Positions 17,076-62,851 of a DNA stretch of 64,000 bases are shown here, in pieces. Below the pieces are notes generated by a model. The model was not told the DNA's origin. It saw nothing but the letters and a program-made list of their open reading frames with translations, and searched no databases. The stretch is taken from the NCBI RefSeq assembly GCF_006345805.1, contig NC_042999.1:131130001-131194000 (forward strand), given 5' to 3'. This stretch comes from Octopus sinensis. Taxonomy: Eukaryota. Every line of letters starts with the position of its first letter. The first letter of the stretch is position 1. A program made the translations under genes and the position numbers.

Positions 17076-17157
17076 TGTAAAAATTGTTTTTATTTTGTTT
17101 ATCAGAATATTGATAGTAGTTTATTCATGGTATTTACACTTTCTAATTCTATTTCAG

Positions 17158-17300
17158 ATTGGAGTGATGTCTTTCACCATTGCACCTATACGGATCCTCA
17201 TTGCAGGAATTCTTTTGATGCTTGCTTGGAGTTTGGCTTCTTTGTCTCTTCTTTTTCAAACTGAAATAGAAAGACAGAAACCTCTCATAGGATGGAGAAA
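17158..17300 (+). CDS. LPCAT: LPCAT1/2-like acyltransferase, internal coding exon (provisional exon 2; N-terminal membrane segment)
   Basis: Acceptor ttctatttcag|ATT and donor AGAAA|gtaagt; 143 nt, phase 0 to 2. Encodes IGVMSFTIAPIRILIAGILLMLAWSLASLSLLFQTEIERQKPLIGWR, matching the LPCAT pattern P.R.L...LLAW...P...WR. Confidence 0.9.
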
Positions 17301-24309: not shown

Positions 24310-24907
24310 TGTGTGTATTAGCAATTCGTATAAAATTGCATCAATGACTTGAACTTGAATAAGTGGTTTCACGTAAATGGGGATAAATTAAAAAGGTTTG
24401 TTATTATTATTACTGTTTGGCTATTGTAATCACGTTTGTTGGTTCCTCGTCAGGGAAACGTTGTTGTGTTGCATTTGTTAAATAATTGTAAACCGTAACC
24501 CTCCCCCTTTCAGAGAAGGGGCTTTGGTTATTGTTTAAAAATTAAATTGTGTCCCTGTTTGGGGAAATTGACAATATTTTCACCGTCTTTATGGAAGCAT
24601 TTTTGTTTAAATGCCTTCGATAGAAGAAAGTCCAAAAATGAATTTCGCTGCAGCCGTACACTTCTATACAAGAGGGAGGACAAGATCCAATTGATTGAAA
24701 TTGCAAGAGACGGGCCTACAATTCCAGTCTGTTATATATTTTGAGTATTGTTATCACTAGCGATATCAAGATATAACTTTGTGTTTTGTATTTTATGTGT
24801 AGATGTATATATATAGATGTACATGTAATATGTACACATATATATATACACATATATACATGCATAATATATCTACCCATACACACATACGCACACACAC
24901 ATACATA

Positions 24908-25045
24908 GGGGCAGGTGTGGCTGTGTGGTAACAAACTATGTTCCAAACACATGGTCCTGGGTTCAGTCCCACTGTGTGGTGACTTGGCATGTGTCTTCTG
25001 CTGTAGCTTCAGACCAACAAAAGCCTTCTCAGTGGATTTTGTACA
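24908..25045 (+). mobile_element. 5' part of a tRNA-derived SINE inside the Helitron
   Basis: gtggctgtgtggtaac...gggttcagtcccactg...; same family as 39670 and 47018. Confidence 0.75.
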
Positions 25046-25149
25046 TATATACAGGCATACATACATATATATACTTGCATACGTACATATTCGGCATAAA
25101 CACTCTACCACTACAACTAATAACTGTTGGGAACACTTTCAAACCTGCC

Positions 25150-26951
25150 TTACATTCGAACCGGAATCTCAACGCCCGAGTTTTCCATCTGAAGTTAATC
25201 TCTTTCATAGAGCTCATACAAAAAGGGCAAGTCTTTGGGCCCATACAATGTGACATGTACACAATCGAGTGGCAAAAAAGTGGCCTTCCACATGCTCATA
25301 TCCTGCTTTGGCTCTCAGCGAAGATCAATTCCAATGACATCGACAAGATAATCTCTGCAGAGCTTCCTGATCCAGCTTTAGACAAAGAACTATACGAAAT
25401 AGTTAAAGCAAACATGGTACATGGTCCACGTGGGCGTGGATTCAACATAAACACACCATGCTTGAAGGACAGCATATGTTCAAAAAGATTTCCAAGGAGG
25501 TTCCTACAAGAAACTCAGACAGGTGCTGATGGGTATCCATCATACAGACGCAGAAAACCAGAAGACGGAGGTTTCACAGCAACTATCGGACAGCACGATG
25601 TTGATAATAGATGGCTTGTTCCATACTGCCCACTCCTGTCAAAGACTTTCAATGCCCACATCAATGTTGAGTTTTGCAACTCTGTTAAATCTATCAAGTA
25701 CGTTTGCAAATATGTAAACAAGGGTTCTGACGCTGCAATGTTTGGACTTCAACAAGAATACTGCCAGGATGAGGTGACGCATTATCAGGTGGGACGGTAC
25801 ATAAGTAGCAACGAGGCTTTCTGGCGCATCTTTGGCTTTCCAATTCACCGACACCCCGCCATTCAACAGCTTGTAGTGCACCTGGAAAATGGTCAAAGAG
25901 TGTACTTCACCGATGCTAATGCTTCTCTGTTGGCAGAGGAACCAAGGGATAGCACACTCACTGCATTCTTCAAGCTTTGTCAAGTGGATTCATTCGCTCA
26001 AACCTTGCTGTATCCACAGATTCCAACGTACTACACTTGGAATGGAAAAAAAATGGGCCCCACGGAAAGCAGGCCAAAATGTTCATGGATACCCTGGCAT
26101 TAAGTTTCACACTTGCCTTGGGCAAGTATACACAATGCATCCCACTCAACAAGAGTGCTTCTTACCTTCGTCTACTACTGCATGAGGTCAGAGGGCCAAT
26201 GTCTTTCCAGGCCCTAAAAACTCTCGGTACTGCAGGACAAATGGAAGTGTGGTCATTTTCCTCTATTGTTAATTCTGTAGATGATCTCAAAAACAAAGTC
26301 TTTCCCAACATCACACAAAACTACCAAAATCACAATTGGCTGTGTGAAAGAGCATTATTAGCTAAAAAAAACGTCGCTGTTAACAAAATTAATCAACAGC
26401 TAATGCATTCTCTTCTCGGCACTATACACACTTACAAGTCTGTTGATACAATTCCAGATATAAATGAAGTTGTGAACTATCCTCCTGAATTTCTCAATTC
26501 ACTGGAGCCTCCTGGACTACCTCCACACATATTAGCACTTACAGTTGGAACTCCTGTAATGCTACTCCGCAATCTGGAACCACCAAGACTTTGCAATGGA
26601 ACACGACTGGTGATAAAGAAAATGATGTCACACGTTATCAAGGCGATCATTCTTTCTGGGTGTGGAAAAGGTGATGACGTCTTTATTCCAAGATTTCCTC
26701 TTACTCCATCAGGAGCAGAAATTTCATTTACATTCAGAAGACTGCAATTCCCCCTTCGTGTCAGCTTTGCCATGTCCATTAACAAATCTCATGGTCAAAC
26801 CCTCTCTGTAGCTGGTCTTCTCTTGGAAGAGCCCTGCTTCTCGCATGGGCAACTGTATGTTGGCTGCTCAAGAGTAGGAACCAAAAGAAACCTTTTTGTG
26901 TATGCTCCACAAGGAAAAACAAGGAACATTGTTTACAACGAGGTGTTATAA
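25150..26951 (+). pseudogene. Helitron RepHel remnant (HUH Rep plus Pif1-family helicase C-terminus), frameshifted and deleted
   Basis: Rep motif 2 IEWQKSGLPHAHILLW and motif 3 KYVCKYVNKG. Helicase motifs PVMLLRNL..PRLCNGTRL, RLQFPLRVSFAMSINKSHGQTL and FSHGQLYVGCSRV. Frameshifts near 26050-26160; Walker A and B are absent. Confidence 0.92.
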
Positions 26952-27149: not shown

Positions 27150-27907
27150 GTTGGACATATGAAGCATTGGATGTCGCATGTGAGAGAGACATCTGCGCTG
27201 GTATGGTCATGTACTATTGATGGATGAGGAGAGCTGTGTGAAGAAGTGCCACTCTCAAGCAGTGGAAGGAACCTGTATTAGATGGAGACCCAGAAAGACA
27301 TTGGATGATGTGGTGAAGCATGACCTTTGAACGTTGGGCTTCACAGAGGCAATGATAAAAAACCAAGACCTCTGGAGATATGCTATGAATGAGAAGACCC
27401 GCCAAAGAATGTGAGATCTCAGCTGTAGCTTACATCAGTGTCAGATAACCAGCCCACTGAAAAAAGTACCTTTGGATCGTAAGGTGACATGCTATGCTTG
27501 AGGAGGCCTATTTAGTCAAGTACATCAGCATCAAAATCAAATCAAACCATAATCAAATGGAAATTGTAGCTTTGGCTGATGCCAGCGCCACCTCTGTAAC
27601 TCCTCATGCCAGTGGCATATAAAAAGCACCATCTGAACATGGCCAATGCCAACCCCTACTTAACTGGTTCTCATTCCATTGGCACTTAAAAGCACCATCT
27701 AAACGTGGTCGATGCCAGCACAGACTGGCCCCTGTGTCGGTGACATGTAAAAAGCACTCAGTACACTCTCAGAATGGTTGGCGTTAGGAAGGGCATTTAG
27801 CTGTAGAAACACTGCCAGATCAGACTGGAGCCTGGTGCATCCTCCTGGCTTCCCAGACCCCGATCGAACTGTCCAACCCATGTCAGCATGGAAAACACAT
27901 TAAACGA

Positions 27908-27910
<3 letters not shown>
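27150..27910 (+). mobile_element. RTE-clade LINE 3' end
   Basis: ctgcgctggtatggtcatgta (LRWYGHV) ... agacccagaaagacattgg (RPRKT); 3' UTR ends in the (GAT)/(TA)n tail. Confidence 0.75.
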
Positions 27911-27935
<25 letters not shown>

Positions 27936-27947
<12 letters not shown>

Positions 27948-28590
27948 AAACAAGTCAAAATAGAAAATGCTAAAATAATTTTATAAAGAACATTTCAGTA
28001 CCGGTTTCGGTCATTTTGAGACCTTTTTAACTGTAACGATTAAATAATTAAATTTAGAAAAATTAGAAGAAAAGTTTTTTTAAAGGAATATTTGTATAGT
28101 TTTCAAATTTTAGTGGCATTCTGCCTTTCTCTGACTCCCTTGTTTGCACTTGTGTGTTCGAGGTCGAACACACAAGTGCAAACAAGGGAGTCAGAGAAAG
28201 GCAGAATGCCACTAAAATTTGAAAACTATACAAATATTCCTTTAAAAAAACTTTTCTTCTAATTTTTCTAAATTTAATTATTTAATCGTTACAGTTGAAA
28301 AGGTCTCAAAATAACCGAAACCGGTACTGAAATGTTCTTTATAATGTTCTAAATTTAATTATTTAATCGAACACACAAGTGCAAACAAGGGAGTCAGAGA
28401 AAGGCAGAATGCCGCTAAAATTTGAAAACTATACAAATATTCCTTTAAAAAAACTTTTCTTCTAATTTTTCTAAATTTAATTATTTAATCGTTACAGTTG
28501 AAAAGGTCTCAAAATGACCGAAACCGGTACTGAAATGTTCTTTATAAAATTATTTTAGCATTTTCTATTTTGACTTGTTTTTTCATATAT
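27936..28590. repeat. Near-perfect long palindrome with a duplicated right arm (Penelope-like inverted terminus)
   Basis: Left arm about 27936-28161, 2-nt centre (ttcga GG tcgaa), right arm 1 about 28164-28344, right arm 2 about 28367-28590; flanked by (TA)n on both sides. Confidence 0.9.
28492..28535 (+). ncRNA. Putative minimal hammerhead ribozyme, U3:A8 variant (second copy near 28289-28332)
   Basis: CAG-UUGAAAA-GGUC ucaaaau GACC-GAAA-CCGG-UA-CUG: helix II, GAAA box, palindromic helix III and GUA triplet. Confidence 0.45.
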
Positions 28591-29849: not shown

Positions 29850-30067
29850 TGTCCTGCGACCTCTGATTGTGTTCCTATGTCGGGCAGTATTTTTTACCGG
29901 AGGATTTCATTGGATTTCTGTGAAAGGATCGAGGGCTCGCACTGAACTGGCTCCAATTGTTGCTCTCGCTCCGCATTCCTCTTACTTCGATGCCTTGCCT
30001 GTAGTATATCTAAACTTAACAACAGTAGTAGCAAAGTCAGAAGTGGAAATGGTGCCATTTTTTGGAA
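29850..30067 (+). CDS. LPCAT: LPCAT exon 3a (mutually exclusive alternative A) carrying catalytic motif I HSSYFD
   Basis: Branch-like TACTGAC plus ttttttag|T acceptor; GGAA|gtatgc donor; 218 nt, phase 2 to 1. Open frame VLRPLIVFLCRAVFFTGGFHWISVKGSRARTELAPIVALAPHSSYFDALPVVYLNLTTVVAKSEVEMVPFFG joins in frame to the flanking exons. Confidence 0.93.
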
Positions 30068-32039
30068 GTATGCACCTCATTTATATTTTTCTCATGTCAC
30101 TTGTCACGTAGTTCACTGTAGTTAGATATTGTTACTTCAAAATTCTTTCGCATCTTTTTTTTTTTATCAAGTGCCAGACTTTTATTTAAGATTAAATGTC
30201 GAAGCCTCTTTTGTTTAGAAAAATGAAATGTGTAGGCTTACAAACTGGTGTCTTCAAATTTTCCTTTTCAGTTGCCTTTCTAGTATTGTTTAATACGTGT
30301 TATGCATGTTTTGCATGGCCATTTAATACATTTGCTTGATGTATTTGCTGCAGTGATGAAAGTCTTAATACTTAACCATGCAAAATATTGTTGGGTGCCA
30401 GCCAAGTATCATATGAAGAGTTAGATCAATATTAGACATTAACTCAAAGAAAAAAACCTGGCATTTCTGTTATTATAACACATTTTTTTAATTATAATTT
30501 ATAAAAGCTACTTACAGCATTCTATCATACAGATAAATATCAATTATCAAGTCATACTACAATTATCCAATTAATGATTAACTTCGCTGAGCCTCAAAGT
30601 ATTCTGTATGAAAATCAGAAGGGTACTAAGAATTTAATAAATTTTATATAACTTATTTCTTGTAGTTTATACTCCCTGTGGATGTTGCATTGTTTTGGAA
30701 TCTTTCTTGACTAAGCTGTAAATAATCTGTTTTAATGATTTCCTTTCTTTCTAGATTTCTAAAGCTGCTTATGTATGTAAATATTTATGTAAATTTTAAA
30801 TTTGCTGCATTTCATTCTTTATACTACATAGTTTAACATCTTTCTTTTATCTGAAGTAGATTGTATTGAAACTGAAAGCCTTTTCTTCTTCATTTACAAA
30901 TTTTTAAGTATATAAAATTTATTCTTTTCAGTTTAAAACATAATTTTTCATGCTTTCTTACCTATTACTATTAAGAAATTCATTCTCAGACTCAAGGCAT
31001 TGAAGCTTTTCTTTCAGTTTATCTGTTCATCTATATTGCTATAATGTATTCATTTCAATACTTGTTTTTTTTTTATGAAAAGGACAACTTTTATTGCCTT
31101 AAATTGTGTTTTTTATGAGCAGGGCTCTTTATTTCCATTATCTATCTAGAGTATATATACTAATCTAACAGGTTGATGCAGAGTTTCTAGCCATCAAAAG
31201 TGCTGTTTTAAAGAGTTATATTTTATTCAAAAAATATTTGGTATAAAAAGTATGTTAGATATTGAAATATTTTCCCATTATAGCTTGAAATAATTTCTTT
31301 TTATACATTCTTTTTAAAATTACTTTTAAATAATTTTCTTTTCCATTCCATTTTGCTGGGGACTGGAAATACATAGCAGTAGACTTATTCATATTATTTC
31401 AATGGACTGATCTAATCCTAATTTCCGAAATAAGTTGAAATTCAGCTTGCTTCTTTTATTTAAAAATCAAATTCTTTACTGACTAGTATTAGTTTATATT
31501 CATTATTGCATAAAATTATCACACACATGTGCATGCACATACACATGCACACACACACACACACACACACACAAATAATGATCATTAAATATTATCCTTA
31601 TTGTTAATTTAGTATCCATGTTGGTGTGAGCTGGACTGATATATATTCTTTTTTAAAGCAATGTTTTACATGGTTAAATACTTTTTGTCTTATCAGGACC
31701 CATTGAAATGAAGTAAGCCATATGTCATCATCACCATCATCGTTTAATGTCCATTTTCCATGCTTGCATGGGTTGGATGGTTTGACTGAGGTCTGGAGAG
31801 CCTGCAGCTGCACCGGGCTCCAATCTGATCTGGCAGTGTTTCTATAGCTGGATGCCCTTCTGAGAGAGTAGTGGGTGCTTTTTATGTGCCACTGGAATGG
31901 GGGCCAGTCAGGGGTCACTGGACACAGTTGCAATTTTGGTTTTACTTGTCTCAACAGGTCTTCTCAAGCATATCATATCACCTGACACATCAAGAGTACT
32001 CTTAAAGGCCGGACATCCAACACTGGAATTCGTCATGGA

Positions 32040-32860
32040 TGTGATCTCACTTTAGTTGCCAGGTCTTCTCAATCACAGCATATTTCCAAAGGTCTCAGTC
32101 TCCTGTCATTGCCTCTGTAAGGCCCATTGTTTGAAGGTCATGCTTCACCATTTCATCCCATGTCTTCCTGGGTCTACCTCTTCCACAGGTTCCTTCTACA
32201 GTTAGGGAGTGGCACTTTCTCACACAGAAGTCTTTATCCATATGTAACACATGATCATAACAGTGCAGTTATCTCTCTTGCACACCATATTTGATGCTTC
32301 TTATGTCCAACTTTTCTCTCAGAGTGCTTACGCTCTGTCGTGTGTGCACACTGACATTACACATCCAGCAGATCATACTAACTTCATTTCTTTCAAGCCT
32401 ACACATGTCCTCAGCAGTCATGGCCCATGTTTCACTGCCATGTAGTATGGCAGTTTGAACACATGCATCATACAGTCTACCTTTCATCCTGAGAGAGAGG
32501 CCCTTAGTTGCCAGCAGAAGTAGGAGCTCCCTGAACTTTGCCCAGGCTATTCATATTCTAGCCGCTACACTCTCAAAGTAACTACTCCCACTATAAACTA
32601 CTTCTAGGTTTTCCCCTTGGCATGTGATGGAATCTGTTTTCTGTCCATCTTCAATGTTTACTGCCCTTGTGCATCTGCCATACACAAAACTATCTTCCTA
32701 GTTAACCTTCCTTCGATATTGCTGCACCTTTTATGTATCCATAGCTTACATCAGATACATCGTATGGAGTTTCTATCCATGCTTTTTCTACAGATTGGGT
32801 AAGGTCATCTACCTGAAGGTGTTTGTGATTTGTCAGCCTTCCTACTTACTAAGACTATAT
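32040..32860 (-). mobile_element. RTE-clade LINE fragment
   Basis: Minus-strand ORF MKGRLYDACVQTAILHGSETWAMTAEDMCRLERNEVSMICWMCNV is typical of the RTE C-terminal region. Confidence 0.85.
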
Positions 32861-34567
32861 ATATATAGGCATACATATTATACTTCGCACCTTAAAATAT
32901 CTTTTACTACAACACTGGGCCAGCCAAAGATTTGTGAGTGAATTTGGTAAATGGATTCTAATAACAGCTGGTGTTAGGAAGAGCATCCAGTTGTAAAAAC
33001 CCTGCCAAAACAGACACAGTAGCTTGGAGTAGTCTTCTACCTGGCTGGCTCCTGTCAATCATCCTACCCATGCATGCATGGAAGACGAACGTTAAATGAT
33101 GATGATGGTGGTGGTGGTGATGATATATATATATATATGAGTCTATGTTTGTGTCTCATTCTCTTGATTTTACATTCCTTGGAGGTTTGTAACAAGAATA
33201 GTATTTAGCTATAGAAAAATCTGCTTCAATACCCTCTATCCGTCTAGAAAATTGGATTTTTTAATGATGATGGTGATGATATTTGGTAGGTGCAGGCATG
33301 GTTGTGGGGTTGAGAAATTAGCTTTCTAATCATGTTGATTTAAGGTAGAACCACTCTTTAGCCTTGAGTTGGGCAATGCTTTGTGAGGGAAAGTTGGTAG
33401 ACAGAAAGTGTTCAGAAGCTTATTGTGTGTGTGTGTGTGCATACATGTGTTTCTATCTACATGACTCTGCATTGATACTTGATACCACTTTGAGAATAGT
33501 GACATTGTTTATGTCCCATGAAAGAAATGTCTAGCAGTTTTCCAGTTCAGTGTGCAAAGATGTAGAATAAAAGTTGCTTGCTTGAAAAACAAGTGTTGGT
33601 TTTAGGAAGGGAATTCATTCATAAAATACTTCCTCAAGATGTCTCATTCAGTCATGCCACCAGTAAAAAAAAAAGCAGATGTAAAGATGATGAATATTGC
33701 TTCTCACTAAGCACATCTTTCTTTTATGCCTAGGATTGAAAGGAATGTTTGGTGTAATGTGTAGGACAAAGGAGAGATGACTAAATAAATATCAGAAGAG
33801 ACTGGACCTATACAAAATAGTATGATGTTTGAGACAGTAATGGTGACAGTCATTTTGAGAGAGAGAGAGAGAGAGGACAATTCTACATTCTGTGTATTAT
33901 AACTTAAATGTTGAAGGAAAAATGAAAATGATATGTAATTAACATCTCATTTCACACTGTTTGCAGCAAGCAAATATTTAACCCTGTATTGTCTTGAAAT
34001 CTGGATTCATACTATCCCTGGTCCCATATGCTGTGAAAGAAGGTGTAGCACCAAAGTAGCTGTGTAGGAACTGTCTAGCTGAAAAGTTTTATATATCAAC
34101 TTTCTTGTGCATAACCAAATATATATTTTTAGATTTTCTTATGGAACCTTAAGCTTAAGCAACTTTCAAATTTGGTGATTACCACAACTCAATCTTGTCA
34201 TTCTAATTTGGAAAGAAAATACTTAATTACAACAGCCTAGTCTTCAAGGGCCAGGTACTTAATTGCTTGCCTAAAAACGTCAGGGATTTAACAAGTTTTT
34301 GTTGACATTTAAAAAGTGTAATTTCAAATTGCTAAGGTTCCCATCCAACCAGCAGTAGCTGCTGTTTACAGCCTAAATAGTTTCCACTGATGTATTGGTA
34401 CAACAACTATGTAATCTTATGTAGAAGCTAAAATAACAATGATAAAATAAAACCAAAATAGTTTAGATGAGCATAGTGTGAAAATATTTGATGACATGAC
34501 TATTTGGAGTGAAACTGACTTTTCCAAACTTCATCCTTGGCAGAAATGTTAGCTTATGTATAATTAA

Positions 34568-34785
34568 CTCTTTATCATTCAGATTACTCTGTCAAATGTA
34601 AAGCTTATTTATTTACATTTTAAAAATTAATTATGAATTATTTTGTAACTTAAAGATTTTGGCTGATGTGATTGTTTATGTTTAGAATAACATTGTAGAG
34701 TTGGTGTGAGATGCTTGATCTGACCAGTTTGAACATCATAAGTAGAATATTTGGGCTGGATATGGCTGGTTTAAATGCTAATGGG
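34568..34785. mobile_element. TTAA-flanked MITE, copy 1
   Basis: TTAA at both ends; termini resemble CCCTTTAGCATT/AATGCTAAAGGG; homologous to 43781 and 59009. Confidence 0.75.
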
Positions 34786-37219
34786 TTAAACTTTAAATGT
34801 TCTTGCAACAACAAACTTGATAAAATTTATTTAGTTGCTTTAATTCAATAATTACAACCTTCGGTTATCTTTTAATGATGCATTGTTTAAATGAAATGTA
34901 CACATATTGAAAAATAAGCGGTGTTGTGATGGGAACAAATGTGAAGAATTGAGGGGATAACATTAGTAACTAATAATAAGCATGGAAGATTTAAGGAAAA
35001 TCTGATCAGAACTGCTTATGTAATATCAGATTTTCTCAACAAAAGCTATCCATCCACTTTAAGCTGTTTATGGGTCAGAATGATCTAACTCATTCCTTTG
35101 ATGAAACTAAATCATAAGAATACAGGGAAATTACAGAAATAGAAAATGTTCGTGCATTTATTGATAATGCATCATTTTTAGTTGGCAGGAAAAAACCTTT
35201 AAGATTACTTTTGATATAAAATAAATTGTGAGTTTTTAATATTTTGTTTATTGTCAGAGCAGTGGATATTATACAGTACCAGGCTGGATACTTTACTGAA
35301 ACTAGTTTGGTATCCATGGATGGATTAGCTTTTCATCTCTTCAGAGTTGATCAAATTATTATCAAAACTAGGTCAATCAAATCAACTATTTCTCTCTTCT
35401 CTAAAAATTGGCTCTGTACTACTTAGTCAACAGAAAGCAATAGTGATTAGTATATTTTTGTGTGTAAAATCAAAGTAAATCAATTTTATGTATACTGCAT
35501 ATTGCAGTGGTAAGTTGGCATTGATTACCTTTTGGAATTATGTTTATGGGAAAAAGCTGAAAGGTCACAACTTGTAATTTCTCCACTACTAAAGTCTCAA
35601 GCTTCATGTCTATGCCAAAAGACATTATATATTGTCTCACTTTTTTTATTTTTTTAACTCAGTTGACAAAGCTCAGCTAAATTAAACTCAGTCTACTGAA
35701 ACAGAAATTCTTTCTGGAATGAATATCAGCACAAATCAACAAAAGTTTATCAATGTTTCATAATCGAATCAACATGTTGAGCTGATGAATTTAATGGCTG
35801 CAGCAGACATGAACTTACATACTGATTTATCAATTATAATTCTATAATATTTTATTGAATTTTGTCTTAAACAATTTGGTAGTTATTTTTGTTAAGCATG
35901 TACTTTTCTTACAAGTGTTCTTCATTGTAGAAAATGAGGCATAAATGCTTTGTAGATGTCATATAGTGCAGCTAGAATTAGTTTCTAGATTAATGCATTT
36001 TTAAAGTAAATAAACTTTAATTTCACTGACTTCTTTGCAAAAACTAAGGGTTCTAGTATCCAAAAATATTGAGAACTTTCTTGGTTACAGATTTGTAATC
36101 TAATCAAAGTTTAATTTTAAAATTTCTTTTATCAAACCAATTTGCTTATATTTTGAAATAAATATAACATGTTTTTATAAATATATTTCTATCAGAATAT
36201 TCCCCTTTATTGCACTAGAATACATAATTTTCAGCTTTAATAAAATCTCTTCAGTTATATTTAATATTGTTTTACATTTTTAATCATATTTAATTTCAAT
36301 AATAATGGTTGGCGGGTAAAAAAGTGCTCCAAGAAGTCACTTCAGATAGTTACTTTATATTAATTATGGATAAGAAAATTAAAACTCTTCAACTTACAAA
36401 TGAAAACTGCTCATAGAAGCAGAAAATATATCATTAGAAAAGGAAGCTTGAAGTTTTGCCTTTAAAAGGACACACATTAAGAAAATATAAATAAAGAAAA
36501 TTCAGCTTCTAATGAATAATTCAAATAATGAGGTTCTACCCCAAGGCTTTCTTTTGTTATTTATATTAGGTAATAACATTAGACTACCACAAAGTTACTA
36601 TCAACAGTATACCTTGAAAATACATAAAATGTAGGACAATATTTAAACAGTGGAATTAAGAAAGAACTATTCTGAACTATTTAATTATGTTCAATAATAT
36701 GAAGGATCCAGATTGAGTAAATTACATACATGCTACCCAAAATAGGATCATAAACTGTATGGACACCATTGAATATTTGAAGCTTCTATTTCAAAACAAA
36801 AAAGTATAGGATGAACCAGCATAATAAGAAAGTGGGAGAAACCGTTGATCTCAGATTTCTGGAGGCATAGAAAGCAAGAATGAACAACTAGTTTTTCCTT
36901 TACTTTTATGGATATGAAATTTCATAAAGTATGGTATATCCAAAATGTGAGAAATTTGAGTAGCTGAGCCTTTAGATATGTGCAGTTTAACATTTTTAGA
37001 TGTGAGTTTTTCAGGCTGTTTCTAAGGTATCCATCACCAACTTCAACATAAAATTAACATTAACAAAATCACATCTGAAATTAAGTCAGTAACCAAAGAC
37101 AACAATGTTGTACCATGACCATAACCATTTAATTTATACTGAAAGACTAACCATAACTAACACAATTAGATCATGGAAAAATCAATTTAGCTATTTAAGA
37201 ACACATAAAAATTATTATA

Positions 37220-37439
37220 CAGTAATCGCCATATCATAGTTCACCTATTGCAGTTTATTATTTAAGCTTACGTCAATTCCTCCGTAGTGTTGTTTTGCAT
37301 TTATGATAAAATAAATATATACAAATTATAAAAATAATAAAAAACATATATACAGTACCGTACTGTTTCTACTTTGCAGATTTTCACCTACCGTGGGGGG
37401 TTTTGGAACGTAACGCCTGTGATATTCGAGGAATTACTG
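37220..37439. mobile_element. pogo/Tigger-like MITE
   Basis: TA|CAGTAATC ... GAATTACTG|TA. Confidence 0.65.
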
Positions 37440-38255
37440 TATTCACTTTTTAAAAATTATTAATAGTAAAGTCTACAATAAAGTGTCAAATCATTTCATC
37501 CCACTTTTGTGTTCTAGTCACTGATAAAAATTCTATTGCATCATCTCAGTTCGTAAGATGAAATAGATCTAAGTCAATGACCAGGTTGTGGGAGTGTAAA
37601 GAAATTTTTTGACTCTTCTTCATAAGAGACTGTATTGTTCAGAAATAAGCAAAATGTGAATACAGCAATTTTTGTGTGTTCTTAAATAGCTAAAATAGCT
37701 CTTCCATATTGTCACTTTTTAGCCTCAACACAGAGTCTCTAAAATAAGGGCAAGAACAGCTCCAAAATAGTACCTAAGTTGGTAAATTGTTTTTTAAAGC
37801 AGATTTTTGTCAGGAATACTGGTGAAGATATATAACAAAAACAGCTATTTTACAATGACTAAGATTGTTTGATATAGATTTATTATTCGTATTCAGAAAC
37901 TCTATTTTGAACTAATAATTTTTGTTTTTCTGAAGAATTATTTTTACATTACTATTAGTAATGAGAGTCAATGTGAACTACCTCAGGCTTGGTCATTACT
38001 AGTTGTAAACTATTTCTATTTTCATTTTTTTTTCTTTTGGTTTACAATTTTCTTTCATGTAATGTAATTAAGTTTTCCCGTTTATTATGTTTGTATACAA
38101 ATTTGTTAATAAATATGCTGATTTTCTTATATGCATCAAATACGTTTTTTATTTCATTCCTATAAACAACACTGAACGTTTTATTGCAGCTACTGGTTAA
38201 TCATAGTTAATGTTATAAGCACTAGTTTTTATCCTTCCTTCTCTTATTGCAATAG

Positions 38256-38476
38256 GATCGTGAACTATGTACTCCTAAAAATCTCTCGGATCATCTTCTT
38301 TGTGATGGGATTTCACTGGGTGAAAGTCAAAGGACACTGTGCACAAGCAAAAGAAGCACCAATTGTGTGCATTGCTCCCCATTCCAGCTTGTTTGATGCA
38401 CTAGTATTTTTTATGATTCCTGAATTACCTGCTGTGGTGTCAGCTGTAGATCATATAAAAGTACCTTTCATCGGAA
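38256..38476 (+). CDS. LPCAT: LPCAT exon 3b (mutually exclusive alternative B) carrying catalytic motif I HSSLFD
   Basis: Pyrimidine tract plus aatag|G acceptor; GGAA|gtaggt donor; 221 nt, phase 2 to 1. Open frame IVNYVLLKISRIIFFVMGFHWVKVKGHCAQAKEAPIVCIAPHSSLFDALVFFMIPELPAVVSAVDHIKVPFIG is homologous to exon 3a end to end. Confidence 0.9.
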
Positions 38477-52886: not shown

Positions 52887-53060
52887 AACTGATCCAGTTC
52901 ACTCAGCCAGTATTTGTATCTCGAGAAGACCCTAATTCCCGACTTAACACAATCAAAGAAATCAACAAGAGAGCTCATTCAAAAGGAGCATGGCCACAAA
53001 TTGTTATTTTTCCTGAAGGGACATGCACCAACAGATCTTGTTTGATAGGGTTTAAGCCAG
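52887..53060 (+). CDS. LPCAT: LPCAT exon 4 (acyltransferase motifs II and III: PVFVSR, FPEGT)
   Basis: ttttcag|AA acceptor and CCAG|gtgagg donor; 174 nt, phase 1 to 1. Encodes LIQFTQPVFVSREDPNSRLNTIKEINKRAHSKGAWPQIVIFPEGTCTNRSCLIGFKP. Confidence 0.96.
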
Positions 53061-58828: not shown

Positions 58829-58887
58829 GTGCTTTTTATCCTGGTGTCCCTGTTCAGCCTGTATGCGTCCGTTACCCTAATAAATTG
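58829..58887 (+). CDS. LPCAT: LPCAT exon 5 (motif IV, PVQPV)
   Basis: tatag|GT acceptor and TTG|gtaagt donor; 59 nt, phase 1 to 0. Encodes GAFYPGVPVQPVCVRYPNKL. Confidence 0.93.
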
Positions 58888-59594: not shown

Positions 59595-59629
59595 GATACT
59601 ATAACTTGGACTTGGGATGGACCTGATGC
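59595..59629 (+). CDS. LPCAT: LPCAT exon 6 (small 35-nt exon)
   Basis: attttcag|GAT acceptor and GC|gtatgt donor; phase 0 to 2. Encodes DTITWTWDGPD(A), the conserved DT.TWTW.GP motif of LPCAT1/2. Confidence 0.92.
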
Positions 59630-62796: not shown

Positions 62797-62851
62797 ATTT
62801 AAAGTATTGTGGTATACACTGTGCCAGTTTCATAATAATGTTGAAATAGAG
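62797..62851 (+). CDS. LPCAT: LPCAT exon 7
   Basis: tttcag|A acceptor and GAG|gtgagt donor; 55 nt, phase 2 to 0. Encodes FKVLWYTLCQFHNNVEIE, matching the LPCAT pattern LW.TLCQFH..VEIE. Confidence 0.92.

Follow-up and report, generated by a model that had tools for sequence, protein, structure and literature searches.

Background

The partition of alternative splice forms between duplicate genes is a described process, in which the copies of a duplicated gene keep different ones of its mutually exclusive homologous exons. Eleven cases of such splice isoform separation, including CALU, MARVELD3, PGM1, U2AF1 and CACNA1S/CACNA1F, have been reported (Abascal et al. 2015, PMC4494069), as has that of the FYN-derived kinases (Martinez-Gomez et al. 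2022, PMC9741552); these surveys start from exons that are still alternative in human, with vertebrate or jawed vertebrate origins in those of their rows considered here. We describe a comparable arrangement in the LPCAT gene of Octopus sinensis, which lies in a window of 64,000 nucleotides (nt) of DNA (NCBI RefSeq assembly GCF_006345805.1, contig NC_042999.1, forward strand positions 131,130,001 to 131,194,000) and carries two tandem versions of its catalytic exon, 3a and 3b. We think it probable that this tandem duplication preceded the split of protostomes and deuterostomes and that the pair was partitioned early in vertebrate history, the 3a type passing to LPCAT1 and the 3b type to the LPCAT2/LPCAT4 ancestor.

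LPCAT differs from the surveyed cases in that the switch survives only in invertebrates, no sampled vertebrate protein having both types, and in that the exon pair likely arose before the bilaterian split. Old pairs are known from ion channels: those of NALCN and Ca-alpha1T, as treated in PMC9741552, are likewise old invertebrate pairs with a selectivity switch or chordate loss, and exon 5a/5b of SCN-alpha, as treated in PMC12772994, is likewise a very old tandem pair that swaps a functional element. Those are cases of retention and loss in channels, whereas LPCAT is an enzyme and its pair would have been divided between named vertebrate enzymes. LPCAT has no match in the main texts of PMC4494069 and PMC9741552 or in one supplement of the latter, and neither 'exon' nor 'splicing' has one in a 2026 paper on LPLAT evolution (PMC13500770); full-text searches, judged from titles and the starts of abstracts and with subscription papers and exon databases outside their scope, gave no paper on alternative LPCAT exons. 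The kind of event is already described, the LPCAT case is new to the literature searched, and the isoforms themselves are already in RefSeq and GenBank.

Results

Alternative catalytic exons in the octopus gene

Exons 2 to 7 of the octopus LPCAT gene lie in the window on the + strand and the gene extends past the window end (Table 1); exon 1 was not found within the 64-kb window. Exons 3a and 3b, whose kinds we call A and B, share the GT donor of exon 2, both enter in phase 2 and leave in phase 1, and are identical at 31 of 73 amino acids and 115 of 221 nt. The catalytic HxxxxD motif is carried by both, and 3a encodes the second N-terminal helix, motif 1 (HSSYFD), the VVAKSE strand and a PxxG kink. 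A profile of 84 exon-3 peptides matches 3a (E 2.6e-31) and 3b (E 1.7e-28), and nothing else in the window scores as a further copy. Across the genome exon 3 has two matches, 3a and 3b, and exon 4 has one; a second octopus LPCAT gene was rejected because the search with these two exons gave none, and as far as such searches see, the octopus has a single gene of the LPCAT1/2/4 kind.

With motif 1 (HxxxxD), motif 3 (FPEG), a PF01553 domain followed by C-terminal EF-hands and a PlsC-like predicted fold, the octopus protein is predicted to be an AGPAT acyltransferase of LPCAT1/2/4 type, and shares all of these features with vertebrate LPCAT1, LPCAT2 and LPCAT4 (LPLAT8/9/10). The octopus has one gene with two catalytic exons, its enzymes being known from sequence, whereas vertebrates have three genes with a single catalytic exon each. 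An AlphaFold model of the 3a isoform (predicted local distance difference test 82) has PlsC (5KYM) as its best PDB match by Foldseek, and exon 3 supplies helix 73-86, the strand before His112, motif 1 and the VVAK strand. A sequence search of the PDB gave no solved LPCAT and no match to exon 3a alone.

Translation of exons 2-3a-4 is an exact stretch of isoform X2 of both O. sinensis and O. vulgaris, and that of exons 2-3b-4 an exact stretch of O. sinensis isoform X1; the 3b peptide is identical in O. bimaculoides X1. Joining both versions of exon 3 brings a stop at codon 122 of the test fragment and joining neither brings one at codon 63. In adjacency, similar length, phases, splice sites and an open product from a single exon only, the two correspond to tandem mutually exclusive homologous exons. 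In a contig of sequencing run X3, position 17300 is joined to 29850 with GT..AG ends (one of four runs, their RNA status being a guess); the X1 and X7 contigs depart from exon 2 a base further on, at a G such as 3b starts with, which is consistent with a 2-3b joint but does not show one. Support for the 3b isoform consists of its RefSeq entry and these indirect signs, from runs of guessed RNA status; a search of sequencing runs with 3b gave no matching run on record as RNA and is not used as evidence.

Reading frame and decay would be the least that keeps the exons exclusive: the frame arithmetic suggests that transcripts with both exons or neither would be removed by nonsense-mediated decay. 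Steric exclusion was rejected as its cause because the intervening intron of 8,188 nt is too long, and mixed spliceosome sites because both exons have GT-AG ends. In the SCN-alpha exon 5a/5b genes decay is described as not the main factor in exclusivity (PMC12772994), so a separate exon selector may exist in LPCAT. The order A then B holds in octopus, and also in two gene models in which the exons are both included, one after the other (Mytilus coruscus P0023 and the arthropod-clade model P0259).

Exon pairs across animals

Protein searches and cluster lists of annotated isoforms provided 28 isoform-pair comparisons. All differences were confined to the exon-3 zone in 19 of these, from 17 species: Octopus (two species), Patella, Gigantopelta, Haliotis, Biomphalaria, Ruditapes, Mya, Dreissena, Mizuhopecten and Saccostrea, together with Lingula, Lineus, Owenia, Panulirus, Saccoglossus and Ptychodera; the other nine comparisons differed also, or only, elsewhere. 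The tunicate Styela clava has two entries, apparently from different annotations, with 46 differences in the zone and one outside, which brings the total to 18 species in seven phyla. Pairs in protostomes (among them a brachiopod, a nemertean, an annelid and a crustacean), in hemichordates and in a tunicate argue for an exon duplication older than the protostome-deuterostome split, as had been suggested from the sequence alone. Among vertebrates, 9 LPCAT1, 57 LPCAT2 and 10 LPCAT4 proteins show one exon type per group (as proteins only), three hagfish isoforms have one exon 3 in common, and both types together were seen in none of the vertebrate proteins sampled.

Some arrangements are less regular. 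Ptychodera flava P0080, P0090 and P0094 are three alternative exon-3 forms of one gene, and exon 3 of Ptychodera X1, Saccoglossus P0087 and Glandiceps P0097 starts A-like and ends B-like. In the snails Bradybaena similaris (P0077 and P0102, 262 differences) and Babylonia areolata (P0079 and P0054, 275 differences), A- and B-type exons occur in proteins that differ throughout, possibly independent partitions after gene duplications in snails. Anopheles atroparvus P0071 (884 amino acids) is a model in which two adjacent LPCAT genes are fused, B-type first and A-type second; it was not counted as a clean partition, being a fusion made in gene prediction, with halves identical at 147 of 305 positions and having an A-type relative closer to its B-bearing half. 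Only one exon type was seen in the clusters of P0208 (Sparganum, A), P0277 (Helobdella, B) and P0192 (Anastrepha, A), which may reflect repeated single-exon losses.

Exon types of the vertebrate paralogues

A profile score was trained only on A/B pairs of protostomes, 14 in number, that of Mytilus being drawn from two species; when pairs were left out one by one, it assigned 28 of 28 held-out exons to the right type. Vertebrate proteins were labelled by named anchors (Ambystoma LPCAT1, Myxine LPCAT1-like, Macrotis LPCAT4 and many LPCAT2) and otherwise by tree position. All nine LPCAT1 score as A-like, from +18 to +41, these nine rows being one lineage and not nine tests; scores are negative for all 57 LPCAT2 and all six proteins of the cnidarian clade. 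Distant homologues (54 rows) range from -76 to +4, none reaching +18, and the Styela exons score +12 (A) and -28 (B). Octopus 3a has a mean identity of 57% with the A exons of other protostomes and of 35% with those of B type, and 3b has the weakest B score of the 14 (-19), with VVSAVDH in place of the VSR-x-EN typical of B exons, possibly a cephalopod-specific change.

The original prediction had read HSSYFDALPV..TTVVAKSE in 3a and HSSLFDALVF..LPAVVSAVDH..VPFIG in 3b, and both are there. The vertebrate motifs with which it compared them are borne out in P0170 for LPCAT1 (HSSYFDAIPV..SSIVMKAE; assigned by tree and His135), in Papio LPCAT2 P0376 (LPSMVSRNEN..VPLIG) and in Macrotis LPCAT4 P0181 (LPKVVSRAEN..VPVIG); the hagfish LPCAT1-like protein retains IVAK-x-E. 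The stretch of columns from catalytic His to K/R holds 19 residues in eight of 84 rows and 20-22 in the others, and the eight rows with this one-residue deletion are six LPCAT1 and two tunicate A exons only. The likeness of 3a to LPCAT1 and of 3b to LPCAT2/4 thus stands for the exon types, which sort in this way, but the octopus exons alone carry no such signal and 3b lacks SR-x-EN. Because the 3b type is near the cnidarian state, its link to LPCAT2/4 rests largely on retained ancestral characters, and the informative link is that between 3a and LPCAT1.

Trees of exon 3 and of the rest of the gene

Exon-3 trees were built from 72 columns. LPCAT1, with hagfish included, falls with protostome A exons in four of four runs, and a clade of protostome A, LPCAT1 and tunicate A has 84.6/78 support (SH-like approximate likelihood ratio test/ultrafast bootstrap); octopus 3b lies among B rows, and LPCAT2/4 go with the 3b/cnidarian type, so that the paralogues sort by exon type as had been expected. 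A 71-row tree was a quick one without bootstrap, and an 83-row run is unfinished. The best trees with LPCAT1 in A are 20-38 log-likelihood units better.

Approximately unbiased (AU) tests were made on 50 rows (84 minus 34) and on 45 (the 50 minus 8 hemichordate/echinoderm and 2 insect-clade rows, plus 5); constrained searches ran for 40 or 100 rounds against up to 200-300 for free ones, for the LG+C20 test, trees from the LG+F+G4 searches were scored anew, and no correction for several tests was applied to the p values. On 50 rows, a mollusc clade (p 0.036), a protostome clade (0.043) and a chordate clade (0.035) are rejected, and A-clade constraints have p 0.35-0.64. On 45 rows, under LG+F+G4/LG+C20, the A clade has p 0.61/0.66, a protostome clade 0.028/0.019, a chordate clade 0.012/0.004, a vertebrate clade 0.041/0.066 and LPCAT1 inside B 0.078/0.042. 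A grouping of 3a with 3b, which the original prediction had named as the outcome that would tell against it, is rejected here (0.027/0.016) but not on 50 rows (0.195). Most AU tests thus reject a duplication confined to cephalopods, molluscs or protostomes, and an origin of LPCAT1 from 3b is disfavoured only marginally.

When exon 3 is left out, LPCAT1 joins LPCAT2 plus LPCAT4 with support of 90/89 (213 columns) and 93/87 (412 columns) in two IQ-TREE runs of 39 rows, and hagfish LPCAT1-like lies inside LPCAT1 (92/98 and 99/95); a vertebrate LPCAT1/2/4 clade is found in two of three constitutive trees. The comparison of exon and constitutive trees proposed at the outset therefore gives paralogues that sort by type in exon 3 and stand together elsewhere, with moderate support and with FastTree in disagreement. 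Vole bacterial artificial chromosomes place Slc6a3 beside Lpcat1 and Slc6a2 beside Lpcat2 (as reported in PMC3253076), and these transporters, DAT and NAT, are ascribed to an ancestral vertebrate duplication (PMC4894405). One section of PMC13500770 groups LPLAT8/9/10 as vertebrate duplicates, and states also that the complete set of LPLATs appears to be older than vertebrates.

Features of the window

Intron 2 contains a Helitron fragment (24868-26948, + strand) with two long stop-free frames matching Helitron_like_N (E 4e-13) and Pif1 2B (E 2e-16); in each of the four runs it is covered by contigs that differ from it by a few percent. Positions 27656-28099 have contig depths of 7,000-34,000 in all four runs and are probably an abundant repeat.

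Table 1. Exons of the octopus LPCAT gene and the intron between its twin exons, in window coordinates
Feature	Position	Strand	Details
Exon 2, constitutive	17158..17300	+	143 nt; first membrane helix; tblastn, AG at 17156-17157, GT donor
Exon 3a, alternative, A type, LPCAT1-like	29850..30067	+	218 nt; AG/GT
Intron between twin exons	30068..38255	+	8,188 nt; GT..AG
Exon 3b, alternative, B type, LPCAT2/4- and cnidarian-like	38256..38476	+	221 nt; AG/GT
Exon 4, constitutive	52887..53060	+	motifs 2 and 3, FPEG; acceptor common to 3a/3b
Exon 5, constitutive	58829..58887	+	GAFYPGVPVQP, motif 4; tblastn, ends from sequence
Exon 6, constitutive	59595..59629	+	DTITWTWDGP; tblastn, ends from sequence
Exon 7, constitutive	62797..62851	+	FKVLWYTLCQFHN; tblastn

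Discussion

History of the exon pair

In proposing a history for these exons, we would begin with a B-like exon, as in proteins of the cnidarian clade, which would have been duplicated in tandem before the protostome-deuterostome split to give the order A then B. Many invertebrates would have retained both, amphioxus may have lost A, and one early vertebrate duplication, before the branching of hagfish, would have been followed by retention of A in LPCAT1 and of B in the ancestor of LPCAT2/4. The exons, their frames, the isoform matches and the pairs in several phyla are the observed part of this explanation. Trees and shared residues make a common origin of 3a-type exons, and the vertebrate partition, likely. 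It had been predicted that the vertebrate duplicates each kept one exon; the sorting by type agrees with this, but it looks like one partition, of LPCAT1 from the LPCAT2/4 ancestor, and not three. For an ancestor with both exons speak the Styela pair and the deletion common to LPCAT1 and tunicate A; against it stand an independent tunicate duplication, which is not rejected, and the B-only amphioxus.

Several observations weigh against this history. The pairs of other animals are known only as annotated proteins; amphioxus has one exon, of B type only, in all 13 of its proteins that cover the region; hemichordates have three exon-3 forms, and hemichordate/echinoderm exons are ambiguous, with A-candidates at -7 to +4; the two tunicate-clade A exons score only +12 and -8. 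LPCAT4 scores are weak (-12 to +23, eight of ten negative and two above zero), and a negative, B-side score is the default for distant proteins too, which is why it is the resemblance of LPCAT1 to the A type that is informative. AK is found in 10 and SR in 5 of 43 distant homologues, and these residues can therefore arise twice. Raw identities to LPCAT1/2/4 are 44/41/43% for 3a and 38/43/41% for 3b, too flat to serve as evidence, and were not used. Bootstrap values for LPCAT1 plus protostome A are only 38 to 62 on the 72 columns, and the unfinished 83-row run had tunicate A beside LPCAT2 on a long branch. On 50 rows, a vertebrate clade (p 0.061), the octopus pair (0.195) and LPCAT1+2 (0.104) are unrejected, and a tunicate A+B clade, implying an independent tunicate duplication, is never rejected (0.42 on 50 rows, 0.33/0.39 on 45). 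On constitutive columns AU rejects none of four alternatives (p 0.17-0.47), and a FastTree of 183 rows sets LPCAT1 apart from LPCAT2/4; we read this split as long-branch attraction because it is gone in both IQ-TREE runs, the AU test giving no formal exclusion of it. No published enzyme assay of either isoform was found in the literature searched.

The most serious rival is that the twin exon is old in protostomes, having re-arisen or decayed in deuterostomes, that all vertebrate exon 3s derive from B, and that LPCAT1 came to resemble A by convergence on substrate preference. The marginal AU values against it (p 0.041-0.078), the single type in amphioxus, the recurrence of AK and SR and the unrejected tunicate duplication all leave room for such a history, but we hold it unlikely: none of the 54 distant homologues comes within the LPCAT1 score range, LPCAT1 and tunicate A have in common both the deletion and Met at the column of mouse LPCAT2 Ala115, hagfish LPCAT1-like still has IVAK-x-E, and trees with LPCAT1 in A carry the likelihood advantage given above. 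Less probable again is a descent of LPCAT1 from a separate A-only gene of early bilaterians, the vertebrate genes then being no partition of one spliced gene. The constitutive FastTree does join LPCAT1 with tapeworm and other A-type rows (97), and AU leaves both that grouping (p 0.17) and LPCAT1 with protostomes (p 0.47) unrejected; yet the two IQ-TREE runs of 39 rows, which include the tapeworm and A-type rows, give the vertebrate clade, Lpcat2 and Lpcat1 have the matching neighbours Slc6a2 and Slc6a3 (PMC3253076, PMC4894405), LPLAT8/9/10 are grouped as vertebrate duplicates in the section of PMC13500770 cited, and the octopus has one such gene.

That the duplication is young, of cephalopod or mollusc age, with a chance likeness to vertebrates, or that 3b is a dead copy, seems to us very improbable. 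Raw identities that fail to separate the paralogues, the missing SR-x-EN of 3b and the octopus pair left unrejected with one row set out of the two (p 0.195) would suit a young pair, which is already contradicted by the brachiopod, nemertean, annelid and crustacean pairs and disfavoured by the closeness of 3a to protostome A exons (57%, against 35% to B) and by the mollusc-clade test (p 0.036). A dead copy would not be open and in phase, with the same peptide in O. bimaculoides X1 and a match to O. sinensis X1. The pre-bilaterian pair with a vertebrate partition is accordingly the history that we prefer, with the qualifications given.

Exon choice and the acyl-CoA pocket

Exon 3 covers residues that have been studied in mouse LPCAT2, where, in the part of the preprint relevant here (Hamano et al., bioRxiv 10.1101/2020.10.31.363515), His146, Asp151 and Gly176 are needed for activity, Ala115 lies at the bottom of the modelled pocket, and preference is altered by A115L, which lowers that for 16:0-coenzyme A (CoA), and A115W, which lowers that for 20:4-CoA. 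The Ala115 column is the best separator of A and B exon types: A exons have C/S/V/W/Y and Gly in none of 14, and B exons Gly in 12 of 14. LPCAT1 has Met in nine of nine, LPCAT2 Gly/Thr/Ala in 42/13/2 and LPCAT4 Ser/Cys in 8/2; the octopus has Cys in 3a and Ser in 3b, and the three mammalian LPCAT2 that were checked, all of which have His146, carry Gly at position 115. A swap of 3a and 3b may alter the floor of the acyl-CoA pocket, and we give about even chances to the idea that it would shift acyl-chain preference, one invertebrate gene providing both an LPCAT1-like and an LPCAT2-like enzyme. The direction of any such change is unsettled because the two published mutants went different ways.

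Implications

Of the vertebrate enzymes, LPCAT1 makes phosphatidylcholine (PC) rich in 16:0 and LPCAT2 the inflammatory platelet-activating factor (PAF), as summarised in PMC8753187. It is a tentative suggestion that the difference between LPCAT1 (saturated, surfactant-type PC) and LPCAT2 (inducible PAF, polyunsaturated remodelling) began as a one-exon switch in the bilaterian ancestor, that most invertebrates still make both enzymes from a single gene by exchanging the exon behind the floor of the acyl-CoA pocket, and that the first vertebrate genome duplication fixed the settings in separate genes. If the proposed history is true, the LPCAT1/LPCAT2 difference dates to well before the genes themselves, and this is a splice-form partition invisible to human-centred surveys, since none of the vertebrates sampled has kept both exons. 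The choice of isoform affects whole-protein trees of invertebrate LPCATs. No obvious shared pattern in how fatty acids are recognised is noted among LPLAT8/9/10 in the relevant part of PMC13500770; the isoform pairs are natural ones that differ in nothing but a stretch of about 72 residues, among them the catalytic motif and a residue with a known effect on acyl-CoA choice, and they therefore make acyl-chain selectivity in LPLAT8/9/10 directly testable.

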